Part shown: piece by piece, positions 20,372-44,980 of the stretch | How positions within the stretch are numbered: the first letter of the stretch is position 1 | How the letters are laid out: every line of letters starts with the position of its first letter | Assembly: GCA_963719085.1 (NCBI GenBank) | Contig: CAVRAL010000001.1 | Location: 992,001 to 1,056,000, forward strand | DNA: 64,000 bases | Origin: a candidate division FCPU426 bacterium | Lineage (GTDB): Bacteria > Oederibacteriota > Muellerivitia > Muellerivitales > Muellerivitaceae | Direction: 5' to 3' | The notes under the pieces: model-generated | Database searches by the model: none | What the model saw: only the letters and a program-made list of their open reading frames with translations | Told to the model about the DNA's origin: nothing | Translations under genes and position numbers: made by a program

Positions 20372-20653
20372 CTAAATCTCGCCGCTTTTGTCTTTCCACT
20401 CTTTGAGCAATTGCCGGATCGCCTCAACGGCCTCGGAGGCGTCCTCTCCCTCGGCCGAAAACTCCAGCACACTACCATAAATCGCCCCAATCGTTAATAA
20501 GTCGATCAAGTTCTTGGCGTTCACCGCGTAGCCGCTACCGTTCGAAACCAGTATTTTGCTTTTAAAACGGCTAACTACCTTCACGAGTTGCGCCCCGGCC
20601 CGCAAATGAATGCCCAGTTGATGGAGTACGGGTATCTTTAATTTCTTTTTCAT
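20372..20653 (-). CDS. HPr-family phosphocarrier-like protein (alternative in-frame start at 20794 with strong RBS)
   Basis: GIHLRAGAQLVK (HPr GLHARP-like), VNAKN and LEFSAEGEDASEAVEAI motifs; GAGG RBS before ATG 20653. Confidence 0.85.
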   Translation of the reverse strand: MKKKLKIPVLHQLGIHLRAGAQLVKVVSRFKSKILVSNGSGYAVNAKNLIDLLTIGAIYGSVLEFSAEGEDASEAVEAIRQLLKEWKDKSGEI

Positions 20654-20834
20654 GGCCTCATCCCCATTTAAGCCGCTCAAGACGACTAGTTTCGCCTTCT
20701 TGTCCCAATGTCCGCCTTTTTTCAACTTGTCCGGGCGCCAGCCCTGTTTCGGGATCTCAAAAAGAGGGTTGATGGTCGAATATTTAATCAACATCGTTTC
20801 CCCCTTCCTCAAATCCAGACTTTGGTTTTTCCAC

Positions 20835-20877
20835 AAAATAAAAACGCGGGAAAGCGTCCCTGTCCACTTCCCCGCGC
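20835..20877 (-). terminator. Intrinsic terminator between sbp and the HPr-like gene
   Basis: Minus strand CGCGGGGAAGTG-GACAGGGA-CGCTTTCCCGCG followed by TTTTTATTTT. Confidence 0.7.
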
Positions 20878-21041: not shown

Positions 21042-22067
21042 CTACTTAGGCTGATAAATCTGGTCAAACACCCCGCCATCACCGAAGAAAGCCGGTTGGG
21101 CTTTGCTCCAGCCGCCGAACACCTTGTTGATGGTGAAAAGGTTGATCTTCGGGAAAGTTTTGGCGTATTCCGCCGCCACTTTCTTGTCCCTCGGCCGGTA
21201 GTAATTCCGAGCGACCACTTCCTGGCCTTCGGGCGAGTACAAATAGGTCAAGTAGGCTTGCGCCAAGTCGGTTGTGCCGTGCTTCTGGGTATTTTGATCC
21301 ACCCAGGCCACCGGCGGCTCGGCCAAAATGCTGACCGAAGGGACCACGATCTCAAACTTGTCCTTGCCCAATTCATTGACCGCGAGAAACGCGTCGTTTT
21401 CCCAGGCGATTTCCACGTCCCCCACGCCCCGTTCCACGAAAGTCGTGGTCGATCCGCGCGCGCCCGAATCCAAGACCGGCACATTCTTGTAAAGCTTGGT
21501 CACGAATTCCCGCGCCTTGTCCTCGCTGCCGTATTTTTTCAAGGCGTAACCCCAGGCCGCCAAAAAGTTCCAGCGGGCCCCCCCGGAAGTCTTCGGGTTC
21601 GGCGTAATCACCGAAACATCCGGCCGGACCAAGTCATCCCAGTCGCGGATGTTTTTGGGGTTGCCCTTGCGCACCAACAACACGATGGTGGACGTATAAG
21701 GCGTGCTGTGCTGGGGCAAACGGCTTTGCCAGCTGTCCGGCAAAAGCTGGGCCTTGCTGGCGATGGCGTCGATATCCCCCGCCAGGGCCAATGTCACCAC
21801 GTCGGCTTCCAAACCGTCGATGACCGCCCGGGCTTGCTTGCCCGATCCTCCGTTGGACAAGTCAATCGTCACATCCTGTCCGGTCTTCTTTTTCCAATAA
21901 TCGGCGAAGACCTTGTCGTAATCAGCGTAAAGCTCACGCGTCGGGTCATACGACACATTCAGCAAATGCGCCGCGCCCGCCGGGGCGCCATCCGCCCGGA
22001 CAACCGAGACGGAAGTCGCGGTCAGCGCGAAACTTAAGATTCCCGCTATCCATTTTTTCTTATTCAT
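21042..22067 (-). CDS. sbp: Sulfate ABC transporter periplasmic sulfate-binding protein
   Basis: Signal peptide; [46 protein letters not shown] and AWENDA motifs. Confidence 0.97.
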
Positions 22068-22141
22068 TTTTCTCTCCTTGAGAATGTTCGGCCAATTAGA
22101 TCCTTCCGGAAGCCCTCGGGGCTCCCGGAAGAAATCCCGAA

Positions 22142-23455
22142 TTAAAGGTTGATTTCAGCCTGTCCGATAACCGCCTGGTATTGCTTGAAATGGTCCTCGA
22201 CATTGAGCGAGAGCTTAAAGCGGTCCTTGGCTTGGTACCAATCAATGCCGGCGGTCGCCACATCGTTGTTCCAATGGGCGGGTCCGTTATAGACGTTGGC
22301 GATATAAGACTCGCCACGCACCCCGAAACGCACGTCGCCGATCCGGTACTGCGCCGTCAAGTAATAACCTTGGGGCCAAGATTCCTTCGTGGTGCTCGGA
22401 TTGTAGTAGTTGCCCGGTTCCAGCTTGCCCTGGATATATTCTCCTTGCAGTTTGAATCCGTTGTAAACCCAGCGAAGCTCAAACCCCGTGTTGCTGCGTT
22501 CCCCGGCTGGGGCGTAAACCGTGCTGGTTTTGCCCGCGGCGGAAGTGACCGAAAACAAAGCGTCCTGTTCCCAGCCGCCGTAGAAAGACAATCCGGTCCA
22601 GAGGCCGGTCGCGCCCAATCCGGTCCAATCCACGCCGCCCCGGAAAGCCGCGTCCTTGTTGTCATTGCTATCGGCGATATTTTGCCCCGCGCCCGAAACC
22701 AAGGCCAAGGCGTAATCCACCGCCACCGGTCCAACCGGAATCTTGGAAGCCGAAGCCTGCAAAGCCAAATCGCGCCGGGCTTCGAAGGCCGTCGTCACGA
22801 GGGCCGTGTTGATGAAGTCCAATTCACCCGAGGGTGTACGGCCTTCCAAGGCTTGGGCGTATTTATACTGTCCAAACTGAAGGTCCGCGAAGGGGATATA
22901 GGACGCCTTCACGTAGTAATCCTTCAATTGTTCCCCGTTGGAAACACCCGGCTTCGAGACCGCCGCCGCCGTCACCGGCGTGGCGAACGGACTCGTAAAG
23001 GAAGGACTCACCGCCGCAGTGGCGGCCGCCGGGTCATACTTCACTTGGTACGAAAGCTGTCCCGGGATGAGATCCCCGAAAAGGCCGATTTCCACCCGCT
23101 TGACCGAAAATTGGTCGTAAATGTCGTTGAATCCGGCGGCGGCCGGCGCCACCGGCGCCTTAATCCCGGGAGCCACCGTGCCGAACTGGCTGGCATTGGT
23201 GTATTGACCCTGGACCAAAAGGCTCACCTTGGCGTACTTGGCCAAGTCCGAAATTTTCTTGTTGATGAGCTCCAGGTCCGAAACCGAAATGGCCGACGGA
23301 TCATCGGCGTCCGCCGCGTCCTGAGAATCGGTCACATCGGACGTGGTGGCGGCGGTCGTATCCGTGGCCGGCGCCTTATCCTTGGCCCAAACCTTGGCGT
23401 TGCCAAAAGACAGGGACGTCAGCAAAACCAAAAAAGCAGCTAAAAACCGTTTCAT
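22142..23455 (-). CDS. Outer-membrane anion-selective porin (OprO/OprP-like), putative sulfate porin
   Basis: Signal peptide; beta-strand-rich; [12 protein letters not shown] and [23 protein letters not shown] resemble Porin_O_P motifs; first gene of the sulfate-uptake operon. Confidence 0.7.
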
Positions 23456-23521
23456 GATCTACCCCTTTAAATATAAATTTGTCCTCATTTAACGGCGCGG
23501 ACTTTCGCCGAAAAGGGACCC

Positions 23522-23755
23522 AAACAAAAAATCCCGGGTCCCGCTGGCTTCAGCGGACTCGGGATTAGGAAAAATTCCATAATCACTAAGACCGCTTTAG
23601 CGCCCAGTTCGCCTTTGCAGGCACGGTCGGGGCAAGTTGGTGGCGGATACGGACAAAGTCCGCAACCGCCCCGGGTGTGGTCCCATTCTTTCCGGGTCCA
23701 CGGGTATTCCGTATCTTTTTGGGATTCGGAATAACGCCGGTTAAAGCCTCACCGT
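23522..23755 (-). ncRNA. SAM-II-like riboswitch unit plus terminator (third in porin/sbp leader; ~100-nt multi-hairpin insertion)
   Basis: ACGGT-GAG-GCTTTAA ... CCAAC-TTGC-CCCG-ACCGT-GCCT(GCAA)AGGC-GAACTGGGC-GCTAAAGCGG; then terminator AATCCCGAGTCCGCTG-AAGC-CAGCGGGACCCGGGATT-TTTTGTTT. Confidence 0.7.
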
Positions 23756-23790
23756 TTCATCGATTGTTCAGAGGGGATTTTTGTTGGATG

Positions 23791-23986
23791 AAAACAAAAA
23801 TCCCGAACCACTTGGCTTAGAGCGGTTCGGGATTCGGGAAATTCTCGAATTCTTCACCGCTTTAGCCCCCAGTTTTTTTCGACCCCAATGACGGGCCAAA
23901 AACGGTCGGGGCAAGTTGGTCAATCCTCTTTCAAGGACCGTTGGAAAAGCCTTGTTCAGACTTTTCGCCAATTAAAGCCACACCGC
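23791..23986 (-). ncRNA. SAM-II-like riboswitch unit plus terminator (second in porin/sbp leader; ~50-nt insertion)
   Basis: GCGGT-GTG-GCTTTAA ... CCAAC-TTGC-CCCG-ACCGT ... AACTGGGG-GCTAAAGCGG; terminator AATCCCGAACCGCT-CTAAGCCA-AGTGGTTCGGGATT-TTTGTTTT. Confidence 0.7.
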
Positions 23987-24012
23987 TTGAAGCGAATGAC
24001 AAATCCAGGGTT

Positions 24013-24145
24013 AAAACAAAAAACCCGGGCCGCTTTAAAAGCGGTCCGGGTTTAGGGATTTCTCTCTAAATCGTCATTTCCGCTTTAGCTCGCTGTTCGG
24101 CTCTTTCGAGCCACGCCGGAGCAAGTTGAAACTTAAAGCCCGCGC
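24013..24145 (-). ncRNA. SAM-II-like riboswitch unit plus terminator (first in porin/sbp leader)
   Basis: GCGCGG-GCTTTAAGTTTCAAC-TTGC-TCCGGCGT-GGCTC(GAAA)GAGCC-GAACAGCGA-GCTAAAGCGG; terminator AAACCCGGACCGCTTT-T-AAAGCGGCCCGGGTTT-TTTGTTTT. Confidence 0.78.
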
Positions 24146-24156
24146 TTGATGTTGGA

Positions 24157-24185
24157 AATATAGCTCGCCACCGATTTCCTGTCAA
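24157..24185 (-). promoter_or_regulatory. Sigma70-type promoter for porin-sbp-cys leader
   Basis: TTGACA-17 nt-TATATT with AT-rich upstream tract, about 10 nt before the first riboswitch-like unit. Confidence 0.8.
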
Positions 24186-24202
24186 CCGAAATTATTTTTT
24201 TA

Positions 24203-24370
24203 TTATCCACCTACCGTTAAATCAAATCGCTTCTTTTTCAATCGGTTCAGGTGTCCCTCAAGCAGCTTTCGAATCCTCGAAAGTTCTTTCACCCATCGAA
24301 GCAGTGTCTCGCGGGAGAAGCCGCGATCCGATTTTCTTCCCAGCCGTTTAAAATTTTTCCTTTTCGGCAT
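24203..24370 (-). CDS. Possible small basic protein (55 aa) downstream of the cysteine desulfurase
   Basis: GGAG RBS, ATG at 24370 (MPKRKNFKRLGRK...), double TAA stop; no recognised homology. Confidence 0.3.
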   Translation of the reverse strand: MPKRKNFKRLGRKSDRGFSRETLLRWVKELSRIRKLLEGHLNRLKKKRFDLTVGG

Positions 24371-24401
24371 CTGGCTTCTCCCGACATCCGTATCCAAAAA
24401 A

Positions 24402-26324
24402 TCACCGAGCCGACGGAACCCTTCCCCCCACCAACCGACAAAGAGCGGACTCCAAGGCGTCCAAATCCTCGAAGGTGTTATAAAAGGCCAACGAAGCCCG
24501 AACGGTTCCCTCCAGCCCAAAACGACGCAGGATTGGCTGGGCGCAATGGTGCCCTGACCTGACCGCGATCCCTTCCTTATCCAACGCCTGTCCAATCTCC
24601 TCGTTCTTAAACCCATCGATCACAAACGATAGCACCCCGGCCTTTTCCGCGGCGTTGCCAATAATCCGCAATCCCGGGATGGCCTTTAGCTTTTGAGTCC
24701 CATAAACCAGCAGTTCATGCTCATGACGGGCCACATTCTCCAGCCCGACCCGATCCAGATAATCGAGCGCCGCGCCCAAACCCACCGCGTCGGCGATATT
24801 GCCGGTCCCGGCCTCAAATCGTCCGGGAGCAGGCTGGTAAAGGGTCTTCTCGAAAGTCACATCGGCGATCATGTTTCCCCCTCCCTGCCAGGGCTGGAAG
24901 GAATTTAAAAGAGCTTCCTTGCCGTGCAAAACCCCGATTCCCGTCGGCCCAAAAACCTTGTGACCCGAAAAAACATAAAAATCACTATCCAGCTCCGCCA
25001 CATTCACCCGGAGATGGGAAACCGCCTGGGCCCCATCCACCAATATTTTCGCACCATGGCGGTGGGCGATTTCAATCAACTGCTTCACCGGCGTCAACGT
25101 TCCCAAGGCGTTGGAAACTTGCGTCACCGAAACCAACTTCGTCTTGTCCGTTAAAAGTTTCTCGTACTCGTCGAGTAGGACCTGTCCCGAATCATCCACA
25201 GGAATGACCCGCAGTTTCGCGCCCTTGGCGGAGGCGAGATGCTGCCATGGAACGATATTGGCGTGGTGTTCGAGCCAGCTGACGATAATCTCGTCGCCCG
25301 CCCCGATGTTCTGCTCTCCCCAGGCCTTGGCCACCAGATTGATGGCCTCGGTGGCGCCCCGAACGAAAACAATTTCTTTCGCCGAAGAAGCCCCCAAAAA
25401 TCGCCGCGCTTTTTCTCGGGCCCCCTCGTAAGCGTCCGTAGCCCGGGCGGCCAGGGTATGGGCGGCGCGGTGAACGTTGGAATTCTCGTTGGCGTAAAAA
25501 TAATCCAACCGGTCAATGACGGTTTGGGGTTTTTGCGTGGTGGCCGCGTTGTCCAACCAAACCAAGGGCTTCCCGTTGATCTTCTGCCGCAGGATGGGAA
25601 AATCTTTTTTATACCAGGCCGCGTCAAAGACCGGACGCGGACCGCCCGAACTCAGGGGAGCCACCACTGGCGTAAAAGCATAAGGATCCGCCAAGACGGC
25701 CCCCGGTTCATTTCCGCCCTCCAAAAGAACCGATCCCGGCACGCCGCTCGTTCCCGCCGAAAAAATTTCAGAGGATGGCTGGGTCGACGCGGGGACGCTG
25801 TTTATCTGATCGGACACTTTGGATGGCGCCTCAGCCGGGGACTTCGCTTTTGGATTTTCCTCAAGTTTCAAATCCTCGGGAAAAACCGCCGGAAATGAAA
25901 AAGCCCTGCCATCCGTTCCGATCGGCAGCGCGGAACCGGAAAAAGGGTTCACCGTTTCCGAATGGGAACTGGGGGCGGAAAAAAAAGCCGACAACCCTAA
26001 ACCCGCCGGAATCCCGGCCAAAACCCCCGAGTCCAAGGGTTCGGTCAACAGTCCGGCCGGCGATGAAATCGGCGTGAAGGGCTGGAACGAGGCCAAACTG
26101 CCGGTGGGTCCTCCCGGAACCGGTGAGGGCGCCGCGATGGCCGGTGAAGGGCTTGAAACCACCGAGGGCAACGGCGGCTGCCCCGACAAAACAGAGCCCG
26201 CGGACGGCGTCGCCGGATGTCCCGGAACGGCCCTGAAAAACTCGTTGGCCAACTCGGTCAACAAGGCCGGATCCGGAGCCAAGGTCCCCCAAGAGGATTC
26301 AGGATTGGGGTTACTTGTAGTCAT
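24402..26324 (-). CDS. SufS-type (class II) cysteine desulfurase with ~230-aa disordered N-terminus: family 2A encapsulin cargo
   Basis: WLDNAATTQKP, VHRAAH, FSGHK (PLP Lys) and RSGHHCA motifs; P/S/G/A-rich N-terminal extension with LTELANEFF motif; ATG overlaps the end of the encapsulin gene. Confidence 0.93.
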   Translation of the reverse strand: MTTSNPNPESSWGTLAPDPALLTELANEFFRAVPGHPATPSAGSVLSGQPPLPSVVSSPSPAIAAPSPVPGGPTGSLASFQPFTPISSPAGLLTEPLDSGVLAGIPAGLGLSAFFSAPSSHSETVNPFSGSALPIGTDGRAFSFPAVFPEDLKLEENPKAKSPAEAPSKVSDQINSVPASTQPSSEIFSAGTSGVPGSVLLEGGNEPGAVLADPYAFTPVVAPLSSGGPRPVFDAAWYKKDFPILRQKINGKPLVWLDNAATTQKPQTVIDRLDYFYANENSNVHRAAHTLAARATDAYEGAREKARRFLGASSAKEIVFVRGATEAINLVAKAWGEQNIGAGDEIIVSWLEHHANIVPWQHLASAKGAKLRVIPVDDSGQVLLDEYEKLLTDKTKLVSVTQVSNALGTLTPVKQLIEIAHRHGAKILVDGAQAVSHLRVNVAELDSDFYVFSGHKVFGPTGIGVLHGKEALLNSFQPWQGGGNMIADVTFEKTLYQPAPGRFEAGTGNIADAVGLGAALDYLDRVGLENVARHEHELLVYGTQKLKAIPGLRIIGNAAEKAGVLSFVIDGFKNEEIGQALDKEGIAVRSGHHCAQPILRRFGLEGTVRASLAFYNTFEDLDALESALCRLVGGRVPSAR

Positions 26325-27234
26325 AGTATTGCGCCACATCGACGTCCTCGAGCACCGCCACCGCGTCATCGGTCAAAACAGCCAAGGAGCAGTAGAGGGA
26401 AATCAAATAAGACGCGATCGCTTTGCTGTCGATGCCCATGAACCGCACGGACAAACTGGGGCTGACTTCCCCCGGCAGTCCGGGCTGAAAAAGACCGATG
26501 ACCCCCTGTTTTTTCTCCCCGGTTCGGATGAGGAGAATATTCGTCTTGTTCTTTTCGTCGATCTTGACCTTATCGCTCGACACGATCGGGATTCCGCGCC
26601 AAGTCAAAAAGGGCGATCCAAACAAAGTCGTCGTCGGAGGCGGAACACCCCGGCGGGTGCATTCCCGCCCAAAGGCCGCCACGGCTTTGGGGTGGGCCAA
26701 AAAGAAAGAAGGCTCTTTCCAGACCTTCGTGATCAATTCGTCTAAATCGTCAGGCGTTGGGCGGCCCTGGCGGGTCTTGATCTTTTGCGAATCCAAGGCC
26801 GAATGGATCAGGCCGTATTCCTTGTTGTTGATCAACTCGCCTTCCTGGCGTTCCTTAACCCGTTCGATCAAAAGCCGCAATTGCTCCTGTATCTGGTCGA
26901 TCGGCTTGCTGTAAAGGTCGGAAACGCGGGTCTGCACATGCAGGACCGAGGTCACCGCGTTCAACCATAATTCTTTCGGGAACTCGTCGTAATTGACGAA
27001 GGTCTGGGGCAAATCGGCGTCTCCCCGCGGGCTGCATTCCACATCCGGTCCGTTGCTTTTATCTTTTACTTTATTCAGCCGGAAAATCCCCGATTCCACC
27101 GGCACCCATTGAAGAAATGGCACCAGCCACCGCGGCGTGATCCCCTCCCATTGGGCGTGTGTCTTCGTGACATTCGCCAACTGCGTGGCCGCGTTTTCTC
27201 CCAGCGTTCTGCGCACTTCTATTGATTCCGCCAT
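26311..27234 (-). CDS. Family 2A encapsulin shell protein (SrpI/major membrane protein I-like)
   Basis: AATQLANVTKT..QW..ITPRWL, LPQTFVNY, QLRLLIERVKERQE.EL, PTPDDLDELI.KVWKEP and ECTRRGVPPP motifs; 307 aa; upstream of a cysteine desulfurase. Confidence 0.93.
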   Translation of the reverse strand: MAESIEVRRTLGENAATQLANVTKTHAQWEGITPRWLVPFLQWVPVESGIFRLNKVKDKSNGPDVECSPRGDADLPQTFVNYDEFPKELWLNAVTSVLHVQTRVSDLYSKPIDQIQEQLRLLIERVKERQEGELINNKEYGLIHSALDSQKIKTRQGRPTPDDLDELITKVWKEPSFFLAHPKAVAAFGRECTRRGVPPPTTTLFGSPFLTWRGIPIVSSDKVKIDEKNKTNILLIRTGEKKQGVIGLFQPGLPGEVSPSLSVRFMGIDSKAIASYLISLYCSLAVLTDDAVAVLEDVDVAQYYDYK

Positions 27235-27290
27235 GACCGCCTCCCTGAATGAAATAGTTCGTCCACTACCGGCTCAACGTTTCATAAGAC

Positions 27291-27551
27291 TCAAAAACCG
27301 CTCCGACCGGCGCTTGGAAGATGGGTCGTGGTTTTAGCCCTGTTGACGGACCAATCCAATTCCGACTTCCCGGCCTTCCTGAAGCCATTCCTGAAATAGG
27401 CCCGCCAAACAATCCCCAGGCTTCCCAAAAACAGAATGGGACCGCTTTTAAAGCTCGAGGCCAAAAACCAAAGGGTCAGTCGCTTGGAAGCGACCAAGTC
27501 CCGCTCAATTTCCCGCCTCCACAAAATCAATTGCTTCGTTTCTGAATTCAT
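27291..27551 (-). CDS. Possible small hypothetical protein (86 aa) between riboswitch leader and encapsulin
   Basis: GGAGG RBS before ATG at 27551 (MNSETKQLILWRREIE...); one hydrophobic stretch; no recognised homology. Confidence 0.4.
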   Translation of the reverse strand: MNSETKQLILWRREIERDLVASKRLTLWFLASSFKSGPILFLGSLGIVWRAYFRNGFRKAGKSELDWSVNRAKTTTHLPSAGRSGF

Positions 27552-27572
27552 CTTTTCCTCCCGCGGCGGGAT

Positions 27573-27709
27573 AAAAAAAAATCCCAAACCGCCTGATACT
27601 CGCGGTTTGGGATTAGGGGAAAAACCCGATAATCTTCTTTCCGCTTTAGCGCCCTGTTGACCCCTCGCGGGGCACGGCCGGGGCAATTAGGTCAACAAAG
27701 CCTCGCCGG
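27573..27709 (-). ncRNA. SAM-II-like riboswitch unit plus terminator (second in encapsulin leader)
   Basis: CCGGC-GAG-GCTTTGTTGACCTAA-TTGC-CCCG-GCCG-TGCCCC(GCGA)GGGGTC-AACAGGGC-GCTAAAGCGG; terminator AATCCCAAACCGC...GCGGTTTGGGATT-TTTTTTT. Confidence 0.72.
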
Positions 27710-27767
27710 TATCCCGATTCTTGTGAAATCGGGAAAAAAGCATTGAATTTAAGGGTTTTTTGCCCAT

Positions 27768-27898
27768 AAACAAAAAACCCGGGCCGCTTTAAAAGCGGTC
27801 CGGGTTTAGGGATTTCTCTCTAACACGATCTTCGCCGCTTTAGCTCGCTGTTCGACCCGAAGGTCACGCCGGAGCAAGTTGGAACTTAAAGCCCGCGT
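27768..27898 (-). ncRNA. SAM-II-like riboswitch unit plus terminator (first in encapsulin leader)
   Basis: ACGCGG-GCTTTAAGTTCCAAC-TTGC-TCCGGCGT-GACC(TTCG)GGTC-GAACAGCGA-GCTAAAGCGG; same terminator as the unit at 24013-24145. Confidence 0.78.
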
Positions 27899-27911
27899 TT
27901 GAATCTTTTAA

Positions 27912-27939
27912 ATCCTACCACTCCCTTTCGGCATGTCAA
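27912..27939 (-). promoter_or_regulatory. Sigma70-type promoter for the encapsulin leader
   Basis: TTGACA-16 nt-TAGGAT with extended -10 TG, just upstream of the first unit. Confidence 0.7.
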
Positions 27940-28121: not shown

Positions 28122-29522
28122 TTAAAACAGCCAAAACCTTTTGTGACTGGAAGCCTTCAGCTTGTTCGAGTCCAATTCTTCCACCGGATTTTCCGAATGG
28201 GGCGTCCCGGCGGGAACCCAGTCATAAGGAACAGGCTGGGCCCGATAAACCCAGTTCACAATGATCCCCTGCCCGCTTTGGTCCCAACCATCATGGGCTT
28301 GGTTAACGTAGGGGTTGACATATTCCCAGACGATCTCCCCAGTCGGAGTCACTTGGAAAAACCGTCCATCCCGTCCCTCGTCGATCAGCGTATTACCATT
28401 GGGAAGCCTGCGGGCGCTGCTGATGAAATGGCTCTGGAAAGACCAAATGGGCCGACCGGAGTTCTCGCCCGTGTACTGCCAAACGATCTGCTTGGTCACC
28501 GGATTAATTTCCAAAACCCGGGATCCGCCAATCAAAGAAACCGGCGGCCATCCCGCGCTGCCCTGGTTGTCGAACACCAACAGGTCACCCGCGCCCGGCA
28601 AGCCTTCGGGAATGATATGGGCGTCATGTTGGCCGGAGATCTGGTCCACGGGCCGCGGCACTTTGGATCCCTTAACCGGCGGATAATCCGGTCCTTGGCG
28701 CCAAACGACCTTGCCTGTGTGCCGATCGATGATCACGATGAAATTAGCGTTGCGGGAATCAAGAAGGATATTATCCGGATTGAAGCGCTTGTCTCCCGCG
28801 TCAAACCAATGGTTCGGACCCACTACGTTGAACTTATTAATGGTCAAGAAGCCGCTGCCTTTTTGCGGCGCGTTGTCCCCTTGGTGAATTTGTTTTTTCA
28901 GGTAGGCGATCCCCGCCGGTGAAATGCCAAACTCGCTTAAGTGGTCTCCCGCCACCCATTTCCAGACGATTTTACCGTCCGGCGTCACTTCATAAATGGC
29001 TTGGTCGGCGATGTCTTGGTCGCCCAATTCCTTGATTTTGTGGACCACGGTGACATCCAGCAGCGTATTGCCGTTGGGCAGTCGGTGCCAGTCATGGTTC
29101 TGGCGGGCCGCCCCGCCCGGCGCTTGTTCGCCCCACTCCCAAACGGTTTTTCCGTCCCAGTCCAATTCCCCAACGGTTTTATTGTGGAAAATCCCGCCCC
29201 AAGTATCTTTGCCGTCCGAAGAAAGTTGGACCAGCACATGACCCAGCTTTCCGCCGGTGATTTTGGGATCCAGCAATTCACTGGGAAAACCCCAATGGTT
29301 CCATCGGTGGACCTCATTTCCATCCAAGTCAATCAGATGGGTATTTCCATCCGGGGCCCCGAAGAGTACATAGCTGTTATAGGCTTTGGCCGGATCGTAG
29401 ATCGTGGTTCCCGTCAGGTAAACCCGGGGTGCCGCCGACAATTCCCCCGTTCCGATGGCGGTCAAAAGAACGGCCGCCGGCAATATCAGATTCTTTTTTG
29501 AAAAAAATTGACACAGTCTCAT
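28122..29522 (-). CDS. Arylsulfate sulfotransferase (ASST) family protein, paralog 3
   Basis: Signal peptide; NHDWHRLPNGNTL, DSRNAN, GQHDAH, LLVFDN and SSARRLPNGNTLIDEG motifs. Confidence 0.88.
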   Translation of the reverse strand: MRLCQFFSKKNLILPAAVLLTAIGTGELSAAPRVYLTGTTIYDPAKAYNSYVLFGAPDGNTHLIDLDGNEVHRWNHWGFPSELLDPKITGGKLGHVLVQLSSDGKDTWGGIFHNKTVGELDWDGKTVWEWGEQAPGGAARQNHDWHRLPNGNTLLDVTVVHKIKELGDQDIADQAIYEVTPDGKIVWKWVAGDHLSEFGISPAGIAYLKKQIHQGDNAPQKGSGFLTINKFNVVGPNHWFDAGDKRFNPDNILLDSRNANFIVIIDRHTGKVVWRQGPDYPPVKGSKVPRPVDQISGQHDAHIIPEGLPGAGDLLVFDNQGSAGWPPVSLIGGSRVLEINPVTKQIVWQYTGENSGRPIWSFQSHFISSARRLPNGNTLIDEGRDGRFFQVTPTGEIVWEYVNPYVNQAHDGWDQSGQGIIVNWVYRAQPVPYDWVPAGTPHSENPVEELDSNKLKASSHKRFWLF

Positions 29523-29545
29523 TTTCTTATCCTTTTCTTAAAATT

Positions 29546-30994
29546 TTATTTCTGTGCGGTCGGAGGTGGATTAAAAATCTCAGGCTCCGCCACCGGCTTT
29601 TCCGAATGGGGCGTTCCCGTCGGCACCCATTCGTACGGCACCGGGATAGCCCGGTAAACGTAATTACTGATCACCTGAGCGTTTCCCGTGGGCGCCCAAA
29701 CCTTGTCGCCGGGTTGGTTCACGTAGGGATTAACGTATTCCCAGACGATCTTGCCGGTTGGGGTGATCTGGAAGAATCTTCCGTCACTTCCCTCATCGAT
29801 AAAAGTATTGCCGTTGGGAAGACGCCTGGCATCGCTGACGAAATGACTGCGGAAGGTCCAAGCCGTGCGACCCGAATCCTCACCCGTGTATTGCCAAATG
29901 ATCTGTTTGGTCACCGGGTTGATTTCCAACACCCGGGAGCCGCCCAACAAGGAAACCGGGGGATAGCCCGCGCTTCCCTGGTTGTCAAATACCAAAAGAT
30001 TGCCGGCGCCCGGCAAGCCCTCGGGAATAATCTGGGCGTCATGCTGGCCCGAGATTTGATCCACCGGACGGGGCAATTGGCTCTGCGGATTGTCCACGAA
30101 TTGGCTGGTCACCTTCACTTTGACGCGGGGAAAATCCGGACCCAGGCGCCAAACGACCTTCCCCGTTTTTTTGTCGATGATGATGATGAAGTTGGCGTTG
30201 CGGGAATCCGTGATGATGTTGTCCGGATTAAACCGCTGGTCACCTTCGTCAAACCAATGGTTGGGCCCTATGGGTTTCATGTTGTTGAAATGAAGATACT
30301 CGACATTCTTGCCCCGCCCCACGACCTCACGCAGATATTGCAGGTCGCTCGGGGTAAAACCGAACTCGGCCAAATGGTCCCCTGCGGTCCAAGTCCAGGC
30401 GATTTTCCCATCGGGCGTGACTTCATAAAAGACTTGGTCATGCACCGGCGCCTTTACCAATCCCTTTACCGGATGGGTGACATTCGAGAGGATCAGGGTA
30501 TTGCCGTTGGGCAGGCGCGCCCAATCATGGTGCTGGTCCGCGGCCCCGCCGGGGGCATTCTGGCCCCATTCCCAAACGGTTTTGCCGTCCCAATCCAGCT
30601 CACCGAATATCTGGTTGTTGAAAAAGCCCCGTTCCCGTCCCGGCGCGTTCTTGAGTTGTAGCAGAACATGCCCCAACTGTCCGCCCGCCAGCTTCGGGTC
30701 GAGCAACCCCGCCGGGAAACCCACATGAGGCCAGGAATGGACTTCATTCCCGTCCAAATCGATCAAGTGGGTTTTTCCGTCCGGCGCGGAAAAAATCACG
30801 TAGCTATTGTAGGCCTGGGTCGGATCGTAAATCGTGGTGCCCGTCTCAAAAATCCGGGGATTGGCCGAAAGAGTCGAAATCCCCGCCAACCCAATTCCCG
30901 CCGCCAAGGACAAAATCTTTAACGAACCCCAAAAAATTCCTGGCGGGGACGCGATGGGTCCCCGCCATTTCGATAGTTTGTCGGATTTATTCAT
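29546..30994 (-). CDS. Arylsulfate sulfotransferase (ASST) family protein, paralog 2
   Basis: QHHDWARLPNGNTL, YLHFNN, DSRNAN, GQHDAQ and LLVFDN motifs. Confidence 0.9.
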   Translation of the reverse strand: MNKSDKLSKWRGPIASPPGIFWGSLKILSLAAGIGLAGISTLSANPRIFETGTTIYDPTQAYNSYVIFSAPDGKTHLIDLDGNEVHSWPHVGFPAGLLDPKLAGGQLGHVLLQLKNAPGRERGFFNNQIFGELDWDGKTVWEWGQNAPGGAADQHHDWARLPNGNTLILSNVTHPVKGLVKAPVHDQVFYEVTPDGKIAWTWTAGDHLAEFGFTPSDLQYLREVVGRGKNVEYLHFNNMKPIGPNHWFDEGDQRFNPDNIITDSRNANFIIIIDKKTGKVVWRLGPDFPRVKVKVTSQFVDNPQSQLPRPVDQISGQHDAQIIPEGLPGAGNLLVFDNQGSAGYPPVSLLGGSRVLEINPVTKQIIWQYTGEDSGRTAWTFRSHFVSDARRLPNGNTFIDEGSDGRFFQITPTGKIVWEYVNPYVNQPGDKVWAPTGNAQVISNYVYRAIPVPYEWVPTGTPHSEKPVAEPEIFNPPPTAQK

Positions 30995-32369
30995 GGCTCA
31001 CCGCGTTCAATCCAAAGACATCCGGCTTGACGACGGCCTTTTCCGAATGGGGTGTTCCAACCGGAACCCATTCATAGGGCACCGGGATGGCCCGGTAAAC
31101 GTCATTGCTAATGATCGCGCTGCCGGTGGCGGAAAGCCTATTGACGTAGGGACTCACATATTCCCAAACAATCTCGCCCGTCGGCGTCACCTGGAAAAAC
31201 CGTCCATTCATACCTTCATCAATGAAGGTATTTCCATTGGGAAGACGCCTGGCATCGCTGATGAAATGGCTGCGGAAAGTCCAGGCCGGACGGCCCGAAT
31301 TTTCGGCCGTATATTGCCAAACGATTTCTTTTTTCACCGGGTCGATTTCCAGCACCCGGGAACCCGGGCCCGTCGCGACGGGCGGGTAACCGGCGCTTCC
31401 CTGGTTATCGAACACCAGCAAATCGCCCGCGCCTTGCAGTCCCTCCGGAATAATCTGGGCGTCATGCTGGCCCGAGATTTGGTCCACGGGCCGGGGCAAT
31501 TCGTCCTTCGGACTTACGGACAAACCCGCGGCTATTTTCAAGCGGGGATAATCTGGGCCTAATCCCCAAACCACCTTCCCGGATGGCTTGTCGATAATGA
31601 CGATGAAATTGGCGTTACGTGAATCCACGATGATGTTGTCAGGATTGAAACGTTGGTCTCCCGCCTCAAACCAATGGTTTTTTCCAACGACCTTCATGTC
31701 GTTGATGTGCAGGTAATCCACGTTCTTGCCGCGCGCGACGACCCCGCGCAGGTAGGCCAAGTCCGATGGGCTGAAACCAAACTCACTTAAATGATCTCCC
31801 GCCACCCAGGTCCAGGCGATCTTGCCGCCCGGCGTCACTTCGTAAATGACATCGTCCAAGACGTCCTGATCGGACAAAGCCTTAACCTTGTGGGTGAGGT
31901 GGGACAAAACCAGGGTGTCGCCATTGGGCAGACGGCCCCAGTCATGGTGCTGTTTGGCGGCCCCGCCGGGCGCCTCCGTTCCCCATTGCCAAACGGTTTT
32001 GCCGTCCCAGTCCAGCTCCCCAAGCACCTTGTTGTTGAAAAAACCCGTTTCAATCCCCGGGTCATTCTCGAGTTGGACGATCACATGGCCCGGTTGTCCG
32101 CCTGTTAAAGCGGGATCAAGCAACCCGGCCGGAAAAGCCACATGAGCCCAGGAATGGACCTCATGGCCGTCCAAATCGATTAAATGGGTCTTTCCATCCA
32201 ACGCCGAAAAAATCACATAGCTGTTATAGGCTTTGGCCGGATCGTAAATCGTCGTTCCCGTCTCAAAAACCGAAGGCGAGGCCAATCCCATACCAATCCC
32301 GGCCGCCCATAACAACGCCGGCATGGCCGAAATCTTCAATCTTTTTGAAAAAATTTTTTTCCAATCCAT
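30987..32369 (-). CDS. Arylsulfate sulfotransferase (ASST) family protein, paralog 1
   Basis: AAGGA RBS before ATG 32369; QHHDWGRLPNG, YLHIND, DSRNAN and GQHDAQ motifs. Confidence 0.9.
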   Translation of the reverse strand: MDWKKIFSKRLKISAMPALLWAAGIGMGLASPSVFETGTTIYDPAKAYNSYVIFSALDGKTHLIDLDGHEVHSWAHVAFPAGLLDPALTGGQPGHVIVQLENDPGIETGFFNNKVLGELDWDGKTVWQWGTEAPGGAAKQHHDWGRLPNGDTLVLSHLTHKVKALSDQDVLDDVIYEVTPGGKIAWTWVAGDHLSEFGFSPSDLAYLRGVVARGKNVDYLHINDMKVVGKNHWFEAGDQRFNPDNIIVDSRNANFIVIIDKPSGKVVWGLGPDYPRLKIAAGLSVSPKDELPRPVDQISGQHDAQIIPEGLQGAGDLLVFDNQGSAGYPPVATGPGSRVLEIDPVKKEIVWQYTAENSGRPAWTFRSHFISDARRLPNGNTFIDEGMNGRFFQVTPTGEIVWEYVSPYVNRLSATGSAIISNDVYRAIPVPYEWVPVGTPHSEKAVVKPDVFGLNAVSHE

Positions 32370-32482
32370 CGTCTTGTCCTTTTTAAGGAGAAGTATTTCC
32401 AGTGGACTGGTCAATTTTTCTCTTAGATTTCCAGGGAACCTTCGTCCCCCTTTATCGCCGTTGTCGGCGATCCGCTTCATTT

Positions 32483-32659: not shown

Positions 32660-32692
32660 AAAATCCCCCCCTTTCCACCGATAAACCTCAAC

Positions 32693-36170: not shown

Positions 36171-36225
36171 GGTCCCCCTCTTTCTTCTTCACTTTTTTAA
36201 CGGCTTAACTCCCGGCTCAACTTCA

Positions 36226-36957: not shown

Positions 36958-37103
36958 CAACAAAAAACCCGAACCGCTTTCAAACGGTTCGGGTCATGAA
37001 ATAAATCATTGCCTTCAAACCGCTTTAGTTCCCGATTCGCCCAAGGGTTGAAACCTCAAACCTTGGAGCCGGCTGGGGGCAAGTTGGTACTTAAATCCCG
37101 CCG
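36958..37103 (-). ncRNA. SAM-II-like riboswitch unit plus terminator (third in exbB leader)
   Basis: CGGCGG-GATTT-AAGTACCAAC-TTGC-CCCCA-GCCG-[CCAAGG..CCTTGG hairpin]-GAATCGGGA-ACTAAAGCGG; terminator ACCCGAACCGTTT-G-AAAGCGGTTCGGGT-TTTTTG. Confidence 0.72.
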
Positions 37104-37117: not shown

Positions 37118-37258
37118 AAAAAAAAAATCCCAAAACCACTTCTTGTTGAAGCGGGTTGGGATTCCGGATCGTCCGATAATCTTGTTCCGCTTTAGCGCCC
37201 TGTTTATCCCCTCTCGGGGGATACGGCCGGGGCAAGTAGGTCAACAAAGCCTCGCCGG
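37118..37258 (-). ncRNA. SAM-II-like riboswitch unit plus terminator (second in exbB leader)
   Basis: CCGGC-GAG-GCTTTGTTGACCTAC-TTGC-CCCG-GCCG-TATCCCCC(GAGA)GGGGATA-AACAGGGC-GCTAAAGCGG; terminator AATCCCAACCCGCTTC-AACAA-GAAGTGGTTTTGGGATT plus T-run. Confidence 0.75.
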
Positions 37259-37355: not shown

Positions 37356-37486
37356 AAACAAAAAACCCGGGCCGCTTTAAAAGCGGTCCGGGTTTAGGGA
37401 TTACTCTCTAACTCGTTCGACACCGCTTTAGCTCACTGTTCGACCCGAAGGTCACGCCGGAGCAAGTTGGAACTTAAAGCCCGCGC
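37356..37486 (-). ncRNA. SAM-II-like riboswitch unit plus terminator (first in exbB leader)
   Basis: GCGCGG-GCTTTAAGTTCCAAC-TTGC-TCCGGCGT-GACC(TTCG)GGTC-GAACAGTGA-GCTAAAGCGG; terminator identical to those at ~24030 and ~27790. Confidence 0.78.
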
Positions 37487-37499: not shown

Positions 37500-37528
37500 A
37501 ATTTATTTCAATCGACGAAAAATGTCAA
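37500..37528 (-). promoter_or_regulatory. Sigma70-type promoter for the exbBD-tonB-receptor-ASST leader
   Basis: TTGACA-17 nt-TAAATT with AT-rich upstream tract. Confidence 0.75.
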
Positions 37529-38283: not shown

Positions 38284-38285
38284 CC

Positions 38286-41024: not shown

Positions 41025-41981
41025 CTAAGGCTTTTTCTCGAACTCATCTTCCAAACTAAAATAACGCTCGCCCATGTCGCAACAGATCGTCACGATCCGC
41101 GCCTGAGGGCCATACCGGCGGGATAAGCGCAGCGCCGCCGCCACATTCGCGCCGGAGGAAATACCCAGCATCAGCCCTTCCTCCTGGGCCAGGCGTTTGG
41201 TCATTTGAAAAGCTTCCTCATCCCCGACCGTCACCACTTCATCCAAAATCGACCGATCCAACACCGGCGGAATGAACCCGGCGCCGATGCCTTGGATACG
41301 GTGCGTACCGGGCGCGCCGCCGCTTAAAACCGCGGACTGGGCCGGTTCCACGCCCACTATCTTTATCGCCGGATTCTTCGCCTTAAAGTAGCGTCCCACT
41401 CCGGTGATGGTCCCGCCCGTTCCGATACCCGCCAGAAAAAGATCGAACTGGCCCTGGGTGTCATGGTCGATCTCGGGCGCGGTGGTCTTGAAATGGGCTT
41501 CCGGATTGGCCGGATTGGCGAACTGTTCCGGCATAAAATAATCCGGGTGCGCCTCTTTCAAGACCCGCGCCCGATCGATCGCCGCTTTCATGAGTCCCGC
41601 CGCCGGCGTCAGGATCAGTTCCGCGCCATAAGCCTTGAGCAGGACCCGTCGCTCGTGGCTCATGTCTTCGGGCATGGTGAGAATCAACCGGTAGCCCCTT
41701 TGGGCGCAAATCATGGCCAAGCCGATTCCCGTATTGCCGCTGGTAGGCTCCACCACCGTTCCGCCGGGTTTTAAAAGACCCTTCGCCTCCGCGTCCGACA
41801 GCATGGCCAAGGCGATCCGATCTTTCACGCTTCCGCCCGGATTGTTGAACTCAAGCTTGCAAAGAATTTGGGCGTGGTCTTTTTCGGGGACGCGTTGAAG
41901 CTTTAAAAGGGGGGTTTTGCCGATGAGCTGGGTAACGTCGGCGGCCGCCGAAAGCCGGGGGGAATCTTGCGGATCGGTCAT
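41025..41981 (-). CDS. cysK: Cysteine synthase A (O-acetylserine sulfhydrylase)
   Basis: KLEFNNPGGSVKDR, EPTSGNTGIGLA, GIGTGGT, HRIQGIGAGF and GISSGA motifs. Confidence 0.95.
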   Translation of the reverse strand: MTDPQDSPRLSAAADVTQLIGKTPLLKLQRVPEKDHAQILCKLEFNNPGGSVKDRIALAMLSDAEAKGLLKPGGTVVEPTSGNTGIGLAMICAQRGYRLILTMPEDMSHERRVLLKAYGAELILTPAAGLMKAAIDRARVLKEAHPDYFMPEQFANPANPEAHFKTTAPEIDHDTQGQFDLFLAGIGTGGTITGVGRYFKAKNPAIKIVGVEPAQSAVLSGGAPGTHRIQGIGAGFIPPVLDRSILDEVVTVGDEEAFQMTKRLAQEEGLMLGISSGANVAAALRLSRRYGPQARIVTICCDMGERYFSLEDEFEKKP

Positions 41982-42652
41982 GGGGTGACTTTCGCGCCCC
42001 GGGCAATCAAATCCGCCGGGCATTTGGATGAGGGAAAAACCGGATGATGAAAAGACAAGCCCTCATTAAGCGAGGTGATCCAAACCTTATTTTCCACCGG
42101 GCTCTCGTTCGTTAATAGCCATTGCAAAAGCTCCGCCGCCGCCATGGCGCCTAAAAGACGCCGCGCCTCCGGGCTTCCCTCGTTAAAGGCTTTGGGATTT
42201 AAGGTCTCAAAACACTCAAAGCAGGGACCCGAGGATGATTGAAAGCGGGAGAAGAAAAGCGCCCAACCGCTGCCCGCGCACCAGCCAAAAAAGGCGGGCC
42301 GGGGCTTCAAACGCAAAGAACGATTCAGGCCTCGGCGAAGTTCCGGATCGTCGGTGAGGATTAACAGGGCCGAAAGATCCTCGGAGTCCCTCAGGGATTT
42401 TGAAAGCCTGAGATCGCTTTCGGGATAGCGCTTTTTCCAGGAAACCAGGTCGAACGATTCGGCGGTTTGAAGACGGATCGACGAAAGGCCGGAAGTCGTC
42501 AGGGCGAGAAGAGCCGCTTCCAAAGCGGTTCCCTCCCCCACAAGCCCCACGGCGGTTTGGGCCCATTTTTCCTGGCCCGCCTCGCCCACGGCCGGAAGGA
42601 TCACTTGGCGGCTGAACCGCTCTTTCCACTGGCTTCGGTCGGAAATTTCCAC
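41978..42652 (-). CDS. Degenerate ThiF/MoeB-like protein (retains RFSRQ, lost ATP-binding motifs)
   Basis: RFSRQVILPAVGEAGQEKW N-terminus and PCFECF present; GxGxxG reduced to GEGTAL; no SNLxRQ motif. Confidence 0.75.
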   Translation of the reverse strand: MEISDRSQWKERFSRQVILPAVGEAGQEKWAQTAVGLVGEGTALEAALLALTTSGLSSIRLQTAESFDLVSWKKRYPESDLRLSKSLRDSEDLSALLILTDDPELRRGLNRSLRLKPRPAFFGWCAGSGWALFFSRFQSSSGPCFECFETLNPKAFNEGSPEARRLLGAMAAAELLQWLLTNESPVENKVWITSLNEGLSFHHPVFPSSKCPADLIARGAKVTP

Positions 42653-43537: not shown

Positions 43538-44773
43538 TCAACGGCCCGCGGTGGCCAATTGGGTCTTTTCAAAAGCTTCCAGATTCGGCTGAATCACCGT
43601 GACTTTTCCCAAATGATCCGCGACCGCCTCTTGGGTCTTCAGTCCGGTTCCCGTGATATAAGCCACCGTCACCGCGTCCGGATCCAGATCGCCCGACTCG
43701 GCGAGTTTTTTCAAACAAGCGATGGTCACACCGCCGGCGGTCTCGGCGAAAATCCCCTCGGTGCGGGCCAGGAGCTTAATGCCTTCCACAATCTCATCGT
43801 CATTGGCCATTTCGGCCCCGCCGTTGGACTCCGCGATGGTCCTCAAAGCGTAATAACCGTCCGCCGGATTTCCAATGGCCAAAGACTTGGCGATGGTGTT
43901 GGGTTTCACCGGCCGGAAGGTATCCGTCTTGGCTTTATAGGCCGTGGTGACTGGAGAGCAGCCTTCCGCTTGCGCGCCGAAGACCCGCATTTTCTTTTCG
44001 GAAATGAGCCCCACCTTCACGAATTCCTGGGTGCCTTTCCAAATTTTGGTTAAAAGCGAGCCCGACGCCACCGGGACCACGACTTGGTCCGGCGCCTGCC
44101 AGCCCAATTGCTCGGCCGTCTCAAAAGCCAGGGTCTTGGACCCCTCCGCGTAATAGGGCCGCATGTTGATGTTCACGAAAGCCCATTTATATTTTCCGGC
44201 GATCTCGCTGCAAAGACGGTTGACGTCGTCGTAATTGCCGTTAACCCCGATTAAGTTAGGATCATAAACCAAGGCGCCCACAACCTTTCCCTTTTCCAGA
44301 TTGGAAGGAATAAAGACAAAGCGCTTAAGTCCGCCGCGCGCGCCATAGGCCGCCACCGCGTTGGCCAAGTTCCCCGTGGAAGCGCAGGCCAAGGTGTCAA
44401 AACCAAGCTCGATGGCCCGGGTCGAAGCCACCGCCACCACCCGGTCCTTAAAGGAGTGGGTCGGGTTGGCGCAATCGTTTTTCAGATAAAGATTTTTGAG
44501 TCCCAGCTCTTTGCCCAGCCGGTCGGCCCGCAGGAGGGGCGTGTAGCCTTCTTGCAGGGTGTTGTATTGGGTGCCTTCCACGGGCAAAAGTTCCCGATAG
44601 CGCCAAATATTGAGGTCGCGGGAACGGATCTTTTCGCGGGAAATGTCTTTTTTGATTTTGTCGTAGTCGTAAGCGGCTTCCAGGGGGCCAAAGCAAAACT
44701 CGCAAACATATTTCGCGGTCTTCTCGTATTCCTGGCCGCATTCCCGGCATTTTAAGGACTTCACGTAACTCAT
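43538..44773 (-). CDS. Threonine synthase-like PLP enzyme (Zn-ribbon N-terminus), SAM-I regulated; probable sulfur-incorporating paralog
   Basis: CREC...CEFC, NPTHSFKDR, CASTGNLANA, EGSKT and PVASGSL motifs; downstream of SAM-I and upstream of the sulfur carrier gene. Confidence 0.88.
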   Translation of the reverse strand: MSYVKSLKCRECGQEYEKTAKYVCEFCFGPLEAAYDYDKIKKDISREKIRSRDLNIWRYRELLPVEGTQYNTLQEGYTPLLRADRLGKELGLKNLYLKNDCANPTHSFKDRVVAVASTRAIELGFDTLACASTGNLANAVAAYGARGGLKRFVFIPSNLEKGKVVGALVYDPNLIGVNGNYDDVNRLCSEIAGKYKWAFVNINMRPYYAEGSKTLAFETAEQLGWQAPDQVVVPVASGSLLTKIWKGTQEFVKVGLISEKKMRVFGAQAEGCSPVTTAYKAKTDTFRPVKPNTIAKSLAIGNPADGYYALRTIAESNGGAEMANDDEIVEGIKLLARTEGIFAETAGGVTIACLKKLAESGDLDPDAVTVAYITGTGLKTQEAVADHLGKVTVIQPNLEAFEKTQLATAGR

Positions 44774-44807
44774 GATTCTTTTCCTCCGACGCCCGGAGCC
44801 TTTCACC

Positions 44808-44843
44808 AAAAGAAAAAGGCTTCCATCCCGAGATGGAAGCCTA
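44808..44843 (-). terminator. Intrinsic terminator of the SAM-I expression platform
   Basis: AGGCTTCCATC-TCGG-GATGGAAGCCT-TTTTCTTTT; upstream GAGATGGAA can pair with the 5' arm as an antiterminator. Confidence 0.85.
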
Positions 44844-44857: not shown

Positions 44858-44980
44858 TCTCTCATCGACCCCGGCCTAAAGCCGGAGCAGGAATTGGCAC
44901 CTAGCAATTCCCCCCCTACGGGGGAAATCCGGTTGCCGTGGTTTCATAGGGCCTGTCCCTCCACCACTCTGGATAAGAGC
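44858..44980 (-). ncRNA. SAM-I (S-box) riboswitch
   Basis: CTCTTATCCAGAG-TGGTGGAGGGACAGGCCCTATGAAACCAC-GGCAACC ... AGGTGCCAATTCC ... GATGAGAG matches the canonical S-box consensus. Confidence 0.95.

Follow-up and report, generated by a model that had tools for sequence, protein, structure and literature searches.

Tandem RNA units with tails complementary to their own terminators precede sulfur-acquisition genes in a candidate division FCPU426 bacterium and are candidate serial OFF switches

The stretch analysed here (the window) comprises 64,000 nucleotides of a candidate division FCPU426 bacterium (positions 992,001 to 1,056,000 of contig CAVRAL010000001.1, assembly GCA_963719085.1). Its minus strand carries eight RNA units of ~65-165 nt each, grouped 3+2+3 in three arrays (U1-U3, 24145-23532; U4-U5, 27898-27582; U6-U8, 37486-36968; Table 1). 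All eight units share the invariant 3' tail CUAAAGCGG, and each is followed by its own terminator, a G+C-rich hairpin plus T-run that starts 21-31 nt past the tail. Each array starts a few bases past one of the three best of the 10 sigma-70-type promoter-like sites in the region 22000-38500. Array 1 precedes genes for a phosphate-porin-like porin and a sulfate ATP-binding cassette (ABC) transporter (Sbp, CysT, a second permease and CysA), array 2 a small open reading frame (ORF) and the genes for a family 2A encapsulin shell and its cysteine desulfurase cargo, and array 3 genes for ExbB, ExbD, TonB, a TonB-dependent receptor and three arylsulfotransferase-like (ASST-like) proteins. Together, these genes make up a sulfur-starvation set that serves sulfur acquisition, which fits a role of the units as OFF switches.

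An earlier note on this DNA had claimed that every terminator 5' arm in the window contains a complement of the aptamer tail, and this is confirmed: all the strings that it named are present on the minus strand where it placed them, within the loop-side part of the 5' arm of a hairpin with a T-run. In the three first-position units (U1, U4 and U6) the string is CCGCTTT, and the terminators of these units are identical copies whose 3' arm repeats the tail letter for letter. An uninterrupted Watson-Crick complement to CUAAAGCGG spans 7 nt in U1, U4 and U6, 6 in U7, 5 in U2 and U3, 4 in U5 and 3 in U8; in U8 it extends to 8 only if one G-U pair and two bases outside the tail are counted. For comparison, 232 generic hairpin+T6 terminators were taken from the rest of the genome; a complement of at least 4 nt is found in 94 of them, at least 5 in 20, at least 6 in 5 and at least 7 in 1. 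The complement in U5 alone is therefore at chance level. Because a 4-nt complement is so common in generic terminators and the first-position terminators are identical, the window units by themselves are suggestive, not decisive. The unit elements were placed by anchor-based scripts; a MAFFT alignment of the eight units misplaced the 5' element of the two insert-bearing units. Terminators were detected by an RNAfold-based method (hairpin of -9 kcal/mol or lower plus T-run), which recovered all eight in the window, while a simple scanner that requires mismatch-free stems found only 2/8.

The family was examined in related genomes with a covariance model built from six units (R1), which still includes a Watson-Crick helix between GGCUUUAA and tail UAAAGC that was later dropped. 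In the window's own genome R1 finds 9 copies, the eight window units and one on another contig (G000:C4:903781-903856, minus strand; locus L144), a single unit with its own promoter-like site and terminator in front of a gene for a 213-residue 1-Cys peroxiredoxin. R1 matches occur in 35/61 related genomes, among them 28 of the 30 that belong to the same family, and most of them form tandem arrays. When species-representative genomes were scanned with a loose pattern, 80 loci among the matches listed were examined, of which 28 were confirmed by R1 and 52 were chance matches; nine of these 28 are labelled Elusimicrobia/Elusimicrobiota, the others being unclassified or carrying scattered labels. 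After duplicate removal, the family set comprises 103 distinct units. Two units are present in 26 of 63 arrays and three in seven, although many of the arrays are truncated where the locus ends. Eight tail positions (C, U, A, A, A, C, G and G) are the same in 103/103 units and the remaining G in 102/103; CCAACUUGCYCC is nearly invariant too. In the arrays of the window and of loci L002-L030, the unit variants are position-specific. Units of the GCUCC/GAGC type, which combine the longest antiterminator with a terminator whose 3' arm equals the tail, stand first in 20/33 multi-unit arrays and second in only 2, a count in which one unit class label is affected by a mis-assigned 5' element.

The family-wide comparison lifts the complementarity between tail and arm above chance. 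A terminator was detected in 89/103 units, and CCGC lies within its 5' arm or loop in 80/89, compared with 48/232 generic terminators (42/232 for the control word GCGG). For the predicted duplex of tail and arm, the median is -7.6 kcal/mol in the family and -4.2 kcal/mol in the generic set; the energy is -6 kcal/mol or lower in 85/89 versus 59/232, and -8 or lower in 36/89 versus 8/232. Against the loop and 3' arm, the tail gives no difference between family and generic terminators (-3.3 versus -3.4 kcal/mol). In 70/80 units, CCGC lies 29-35 nt after the tail. Although CCGC is kept in 80 terminators, the opposite strand of the stem reads GCGG in just 47/80 and GUGG in 18/80; the 5' arm is thus better conserved than its own 3' partner, which points to a double constraint on the arm. 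Five of the nine terminators that lack CCGC have a single C-to-U change that keeps the pairing with the tail via G-U. Moreover, the base after the tail can pair with the base before CCGC in 39/80 units (U:A in 23 cases, C:G in 15), compared with 26.4 +/- 3.6 in shuffles, of which 3/5000 reach 39. When the nascent RNA was folded from ten tail bases through CCGC+3, that is, before the 3' arm exists, the predicted probability of all four GCGG:CCGC pairs exceeded 0.5 in 79/80 units and 0.9 in 76/80. In this predicted fold the antiterminator helix encloses a conserved linker hairpin, and the corresponding segment of U8 folds alike (-17.2 kcal/mol).

These data bear directly on the possibility that the complementarity is a by-product, in which units and terminators were duplicated together and the CCGC...GCGG stem tops were kept for hairpin stability, with no role for pairing between tail and arm. 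This reading can draw on the evident paralogy of the units, the identity of the three first-position terminators, the presence of CCGC in 21% of generic terminators, the mere 4 bp of U5 and the absence of compensatory change in the core. However, conservation is far higher at CCGC than in the remainder of the stems or in the 3' strand that pairs with it there (GCGG in 47/80), the distance of CCGC from the tail is fixed, the enrichment is confined to the 5' arm, the C-to-U changes retain pairing with the tail, and the adjoining position covaries. We therefore consider a mere by-product quite improbable.

Some GGAUUUAA-type units carry a different platform. The last array units of this type at loci L003 (2696 onward), L004, L007, L014 and L024 are followed by a hairpin CCCGNCCCGC...GCGGGG without a U-run. 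The alternative platform of some GGAUUUAA-type units is bracketed by UCUUCG...CGAAGA and continues with GACCCCGAGCGG...CCGCGAUA, with CCGC still at the usual distance. It is probably another, non-terminator mode of control.

The order of elements within a unit is P1 (4-6 bp), the U-rich strand G(A)GGCUUUAA, a turn, CC-AAC-UUGCYCC, the 3' strand of P1, a variable hairpin, AAC(A)G and finally GGNGC-U-AAAGCGG. P1 pairs the 4-6 nt before G(A)GGCUUUAA with the bases just past UUGCYCC(G); its covariants include CGGC/GCCG, CGGU/ACCG, ACGC/GCGU, UGGC/GCCA, AGGC/GCCU and CUGGU/ACCAG, and at least 4 bp can form in 98/103 units, compared with 57.3 +/- 4.1 (maximum 68) when partners are swapped. The variable hairpin 3' of P1 shows covariation at 5/5 modelled pairs. 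In the lower pseudoknot helix (P2), GCYCC pairs with the bases before CUAAAG and the changes are coupled, GCUCC occurring with G(C/U/A)GAGC and GCCCC with GGGNGC, while the other pairs are invariant. The CC before AAC could pair with the final GG of the tail as a P2a-like helix; the C next to AAC is present in 103/103 units, and in front of it 94 units have C, 8 have U and one has A. Judged by these covariation patterns, the aptamer is predicted to be an H-type pseudoknot, as in the SAM-II/SAM-V clan of S-adenosylmethionine (SAM) riboswitches. The turn before CCAACUUG tolerates hairpin inserts in 19/101 family units, including U2 and U3, so that the 5' element lies 49-169 nt from UUGC in insert units and 14-18 nt in the other 82.

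The U-rich strand GGCUUUAA, or a close variant, directly follows P1 in 101/103 units. A Watson-Crick helix between it and tail UAAAGC was rejected, with 0 compensatory pairs and mismatches in 18/76 units at one position. The common variant at that position is A, as SAM-V has at the corresponding third-strand position. Instead, in our model, the aptamer partner of the tail is probably the UUG-containing strand, with GGCUUUAA as the third strand of a triplex. CTAAA is present in 103/103 units and TTGC in all 103 by definition, being part of the search pattern, so that the core in which UUG lies opposite C-U(bulge)-AAA is found in the family. The mapping to SAM-V is a manual alignment based on Tables S1 and S4 of PMC6061858. 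According to that source, U19-G21 of SAM-V lie opposite C46-A50, U47 is bulged and pairs with the SAM adenine, A50 holds the amino-acid end of the ligand, and a U-rich strand occupies the major groove of P2; the ligand stabilises the triplex and P2a, hiding the ribosome-binding site, and most SAM-II riboswitches are transcriptional (PMC6061858).

Taken together, we propose, with a probability of roughly 0.6, that the arrays are serial transcriptional OFF switches set before sulfur-starvation operons, each unit consisting of an aptamer, a linker hairpin and an intrinsic terminator. Two or three such units would stand in series between a sigma-70-type promoter and the operon. The invariant tail would form the ascending strand of the pseudoknot helix and of the short closing helix (GG with CC). 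In the absence of ligand, the tail would be free when, ~31-33 nt further on, CCGC(UUU) emerges in the loop-proximal half of the terminator 5' arm; tail and arm would pair across the pre-formed linker hairpin, terminator nucleation would be blocked, and the polymerase would continue into the next unit. With ligand bound, the triplex/pseudoknot would hold the tail, the 5' arm would pair with the 3' arm, and transcription would stop. Read-through would require every unit in the series to be unliganded, giving tight and steep repression when sulfur is sufficient.

In the model, the same bases take part in both pairings, A83-A85 in P2 and G88-G89 in the closing helix, and the terminator 5' arm would compete for them. 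Since the tail maps to the P2/P2a strand, arm pairing and the folded aptamer would be mutually exclusive, and given the SAM-II/SAM-V-like position of that strand, a locked tail that lets the terminator form and switches the operon off is the natural reading. The units thus have what an OFF-switch platform would need, a downstream terminator and a 3' aptamer strand that is complementary to its 5' arm and predicted to be exclusive with the folded aptamer. The earlier note had read the same logic from the window, with the tail invading the terminator without ligand and being locked with it. The part in which the tail alternates between pseudoknot and 5' arm gains support from the conserved spacing, the conservation of the arm, the flanking covariation and the nascent fold, whereas ligand dependence and the OFF direction are what we infer from this arrangement. 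SAM itself is plausible as the ligand because the core is SAM-V-like, although we put it at somewhat below even odds, the alternative being another metabolite that reports sulfur status. Still bolder, and unlikely in our judgement, is a new riboswitch class built on the SAM-II/SAM-V triplex-pseudoknot fold that would serve as the master sulfate-starvation sensor of an Elusimicrobiota-related lineage, sensing a non-SAM metabolite such as adenosine phosphosulfate (APS) or phosphoadenosine phosphosulfate (PAPS), with unit variants giving different thresholds and the leader acting as a multi-step digital gate.

Several points weigh against the serial OFF switch. The core GCGG:CCGC shows no compensatory double change because the tail is invariant, so the helix rests on conservation, enrichment and one flanking position; the covariation at that position runs parallel with the division into unit classes and may go back to no more than one or two events in evolution. 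The antiterminator is short, with a contiguous Watson-Crick complement of 4 in 16, 5 in 28, 6 in 15 and 7-10 in 21 of 80 units, so that in most units a 4-6-bp helix faces a terminator of -17 to -21 kcal/mol whose G+C-rich base lies outside the antiterminator. At equilibrium, the terminator state is favoured in the window units (-25 to -27 versus -10.6 to -18.8 kcal/mol); as the terminator is the minimum-energy fold once its 3' arm is present, any switching must be kinetic. Four of the 89 terminators (L028, L030, L078 and L094, from distant lineages) have no evident complement, and no terminator was detected in 14/103 units. The nascent-fold segments were cut at a chosen CCGC, which biases them towards the helix, and the P values exaggerate the case, since sequences that are related do not count as independent. 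With respect to the aptamer, no Rfam SAM-II or SAM-V model matches at the units, and one ligand-adjacent position differs, being C where SAM-V has A18. In addition, a methionine-type gene cluster of the genome is already served by a SAM-I riboswitch, a point in favour of another signal at the units.

The energetic imbalance could also point to an ON switch, in which the GCGG:CCGC helix and linker hairpin are part of the ligand-stabilised fold, a starvation signal such as O-acetylserine prevents termination, and the terminator wins without ligand. A short antiterminator facing a terminator at least 10 kcal/mol more stable might need ligand-dependent stabilisation; the conservation of the tail GCGG, of CCGC, of the spacing between the two and of the linker hairpin resembles that of aptamer parts; and inducer-driven logic for starvation genes is familiar from CysB of E. 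coli. However, the helix does not enclose the conserved core and, in the SAM-V-like model, overlaps the P2/P2a bases G86-G89, together with A83-A85 in first-position units, and would therefore exclude the folded pseudoknot rather than extend it. Four units from distant lineages have a full aptamer without CCGC, and the nascent segment is predicted to form the helix by default without ligand, making an ON switch very improbable. The remaining possibility, that the same terminator/antiterminator switch is set by a protein or other trans-acting factor on conserved single-stranded segments, could draw on the long invariant stretches CCAACUUGC and GCUAAAGCGG, on the lack of a match to known riboswitch families at the units, on the serial sites typical of protein-controlled attenuators and on the unusual HPr-like protein encoded within the sulfate operon, but it is hardly likely given a pseudoknot with covarying P1 and hairpin, an unpaired core conserved as in the SAM-V ligand pocket, and no candidate RNA-binding regulator beside the window arrays or among the 39 downstream ORFs examined.

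Among 39 first downstream ORFs of the family, 11 encode 1-Cys peroxiredoxins, five porins, five Cys/Met pyridoxal phosphate (PLP) enzymes, two ABC ATPases, two sulfate-type binding proteins and one a DsrE-like protein, while two are other and 11 have no Pfam match. Sulfate-starvation proteins of other bacteria include the 1-Cys peroxiredoxin LsfA and encapsulins of the SrpI type. Within the window, an HPr-family phosphocarrier domain with an N-terminal extension of ~60 residues is encoded between the binding protein and CysT genes, an unusual location. The small ORF between U5 and the encapsulin shell gene has 86 residues and no Pfam match. The three ASST-like proteins encoded 3' of the TonB-dependent receptor under array 3 are paralogous; an NCBIfam search of one of the three gave no match, and they may scavenge sulfate esters. 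The SAM-I riboswitch, the only copy in the genome, precedes genes for a threonine-synthase-like PLP enzyme that bears a small NinF-like segment at its N terminus, a ThiF/MoeB-like fragment and the cysteine synthase CysK, a cluster that may represent a sulfur-carrier-dependent homocysteine or methionine route.

Table 1. Units, terminators, promoter-like sites and other features of the window, in window coordinates. R1, covariance model of the units; MFE, minimum free energy.
Feature	Position	Strand	Details
Promoter of array 1, TTGACA-17-TATATT	24157..24185	-	11/12 consensus positions, best of 10 in 22000-38500; directly 5' of U1
U1 aptamer, first position, GCUCC type	24080..24145	-	R1 84.0 bits; tail AAAGCGG 24086-24080
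U1 linker hairpin UUUAGAG...CUCCCUAAA	24051..24070	-	MFE fold of tail-to-5'-arm segment; inside the antiterminator helix, adjoins the terminator
U1 terminator hairpin	24024..24050	-	-18.0 kcal/mol; T-run from 24023; predicted antiterminator partner CCGCTTT 24044-24038
U2 aptamer, hairpin inserted in turn	23857..23987	-	R1 search plus tail and turn coordinates; tail AAAGCGG 23863-23857
U2 terminator	23801..23832	-	complement ACCGCT 23826-23821
U3 aptamer, long insert in turn	23592..23755	-	R1 search plus tail and turn coordinates; tail AAAGCGG 23598-23592
U3 terminator	23532..23564	-	complement CCGCT 23556-23552; porin gene 22142-23455 and sulfate ABC genes downstream
Promoter of array 2, TTGACA-16-TAGGAT, TG before it	27912..27939	-	promoter-like site scan
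U4 aptamer, first position	27835..27898	-	R1 84.3 bits; tail AAAGCGG 27841-27835
U4 terminator	27778..27804	-	complement CCGCTTT 27798-27792
U5 aptamer	27641..27708	-	R1 75.8 bits; tail AAAGCGG 27647-27641
U5 terminator	27582..27612	-	complement CCGC only, 27605-27602; small ORF, 2A encapsulin shell and cysteine desulfurase cargo downstream
Promoter of array 3, TTGACA-17-TAAATT	37500..37528	-	promoter-like site scan
U6 aptamer, first position	37423..37486	-	R1 86.1 bits; tail AAAGCGG 37429-37423
U6 terminator	37366..37392	-	complement ACCGCTTT 37387-37380, 8 bp counting the U after the tail; CCGCTTT 37386-37380
U7 aptamer	37187..37257	-	R1 76.6 bits; tail AAAGCGG 37193-37187
U7 terminator	37128..37161	-	complement CCGCTT 37154-37149
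U8 aptamer, GGAUUUAA type	37020..37103	-	R1 62.7 bits; 5' end set by eye; tail AAAGCGG 37026-37020
U8 terminator	36968..36993	-	complement AACCGTTT 36989-36982, one G-U pair, two bases past the tail
HPr-family phosphocarrier domain gene	20372..20836	-	between binding protein and CysT genes
Small ORF	27291..27551	-	between U5 and encapsulin shell gene
ASST-like genes (three)	28122..32480	-	3' of TonB-dependent receptor gene
SAM-I riboswitch	44859..44979	-	83.6 bits; canonical
Threonine-synthase-like PLP enzyme gene	43538..44809	-	SAM-I gene cluster
ThiF/MoeB-like fragment	41978..42652	-	SAM-I gene cluster
CysK cysteine synthase gene	41025..42023	-	SAM-I gene cluster

If the proposed switch is correct, the units would represent a riboswitch family that Rfam 15 lacks. 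The SAM-II/SAM-V fold would be extended to a new phylum and to a termination platform in which the P2a strand doubles as antiterminator, and a whole sulfur-starvation regulon would lie under one RNA sensor, covering sulfate uptake, the cysteine-desulfurase encapsulin, TonB-dependent uptake with ASST-like proteins and the 1-Cys peroxiredoxin. The conserved arrays of two or three switches would offer a natural test bed for the sharpening of responses by serial riboswitches, and the encapsulin link a handle on the regulation of a sulfur-storage compartment.

Searches with known families set the units apart. Rfam 15 at gathering thresholds gave no family at the units in the whole window, and at E <=10 over 22500-28500 and 37015-37495 (a 481-nt search space) it gave weak chance matches on terminator hairpins and no riboswitch family. 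Over the whole genome, the SAM-II model (RF00521) had 14 weak matches of up to 19.2 bits (threshold 36 bits), none at the nine motif copies, the SAM-V model (RF01826) had no match (threshold 41 bits), and the sole match of the SAM-I model (RF00162) was the separate element listed in Table 1, not a unit. By the covariance-model test, the unit is thus not a member of SAM-II or SAM-V. A full-text literature search returned nothing on the unit motif. The antiterminator principle is textbook; what is new is the aptamer family, the P2a-like strand as antiterminator and the conservation of arrays with two or three units on a regulon for sulfur starvation.

With SAM-II and SAM-V, the units share the order of P1 5' strand, U-rich strand, turn and a descending P2 that runs directly into the P1 3' strand, followed by a P3-like hairpin (as in SAM-V), As, an ascending P2 and a short P2a that joins the turn to the 3' end. 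They also resemble SAM-V in the 4-bp P1 and in core bases, UUU corresponding to U8-U10, UUG to U19-G21 and C-U(bulge)-A-A-A to C46-A50, and in the proposed OFF logic the ligand would likewise tie down the 3' strand. The units differ in a lower P2 that is one pair longer, a longer third strand, an extra base between P2 and P1, the C in place of A18 of SAM-V and the optional turn hairpins noted above; their 3' end GCGG would feed an antiterminator where SAM-V has a Shine-Dalgarno sequence. The units also come from a different phylum and serve a regulon of sulfate starvation, not of methionine synthesis. As the mapping is a manual alignment, the resemblance to SAM-V is a lead and not proof of homology.

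In their logic, the units resemble SAM-I (S-box) riboswitches, in which the 3' strand of a ligand-stabilised helix is the 5' strand of an antiterminator that opposes an intrinsic terminator, with an OFF response on sulfur and methionine genes. The SAM-I aptamer, however, is a four-way junction whose fold is unrelated to that of the units, and S-box antiterminators are longer than the 4-8 bp of the units. The sul1 motif, described in PMC5737381 as an orphan cis-regulatory RNA candidate upstream of sulfate transporters with unknown ligand, shares the association with sulfate transport and sulfur genes, but is a separate and different RNA. It is presumably among the Rfam families, none of which matched the units at E <=10. 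In their serial layout, the units come closest to the tandem thiamine pyrophosphate (TPP) riboswitches of Bacillus anthracis, which are complete, have one terminator each and were reportedly described by Welz and Breaker in 2007. As in those tandem riboswitches, a complete aptamer plus terminator is repeated in series on one leader, for which tighter and more switch-like repression is expected. Unlike them, the units number up to three per leader, their pattern is conserved across a bacterial family, and their variants are position-specific.

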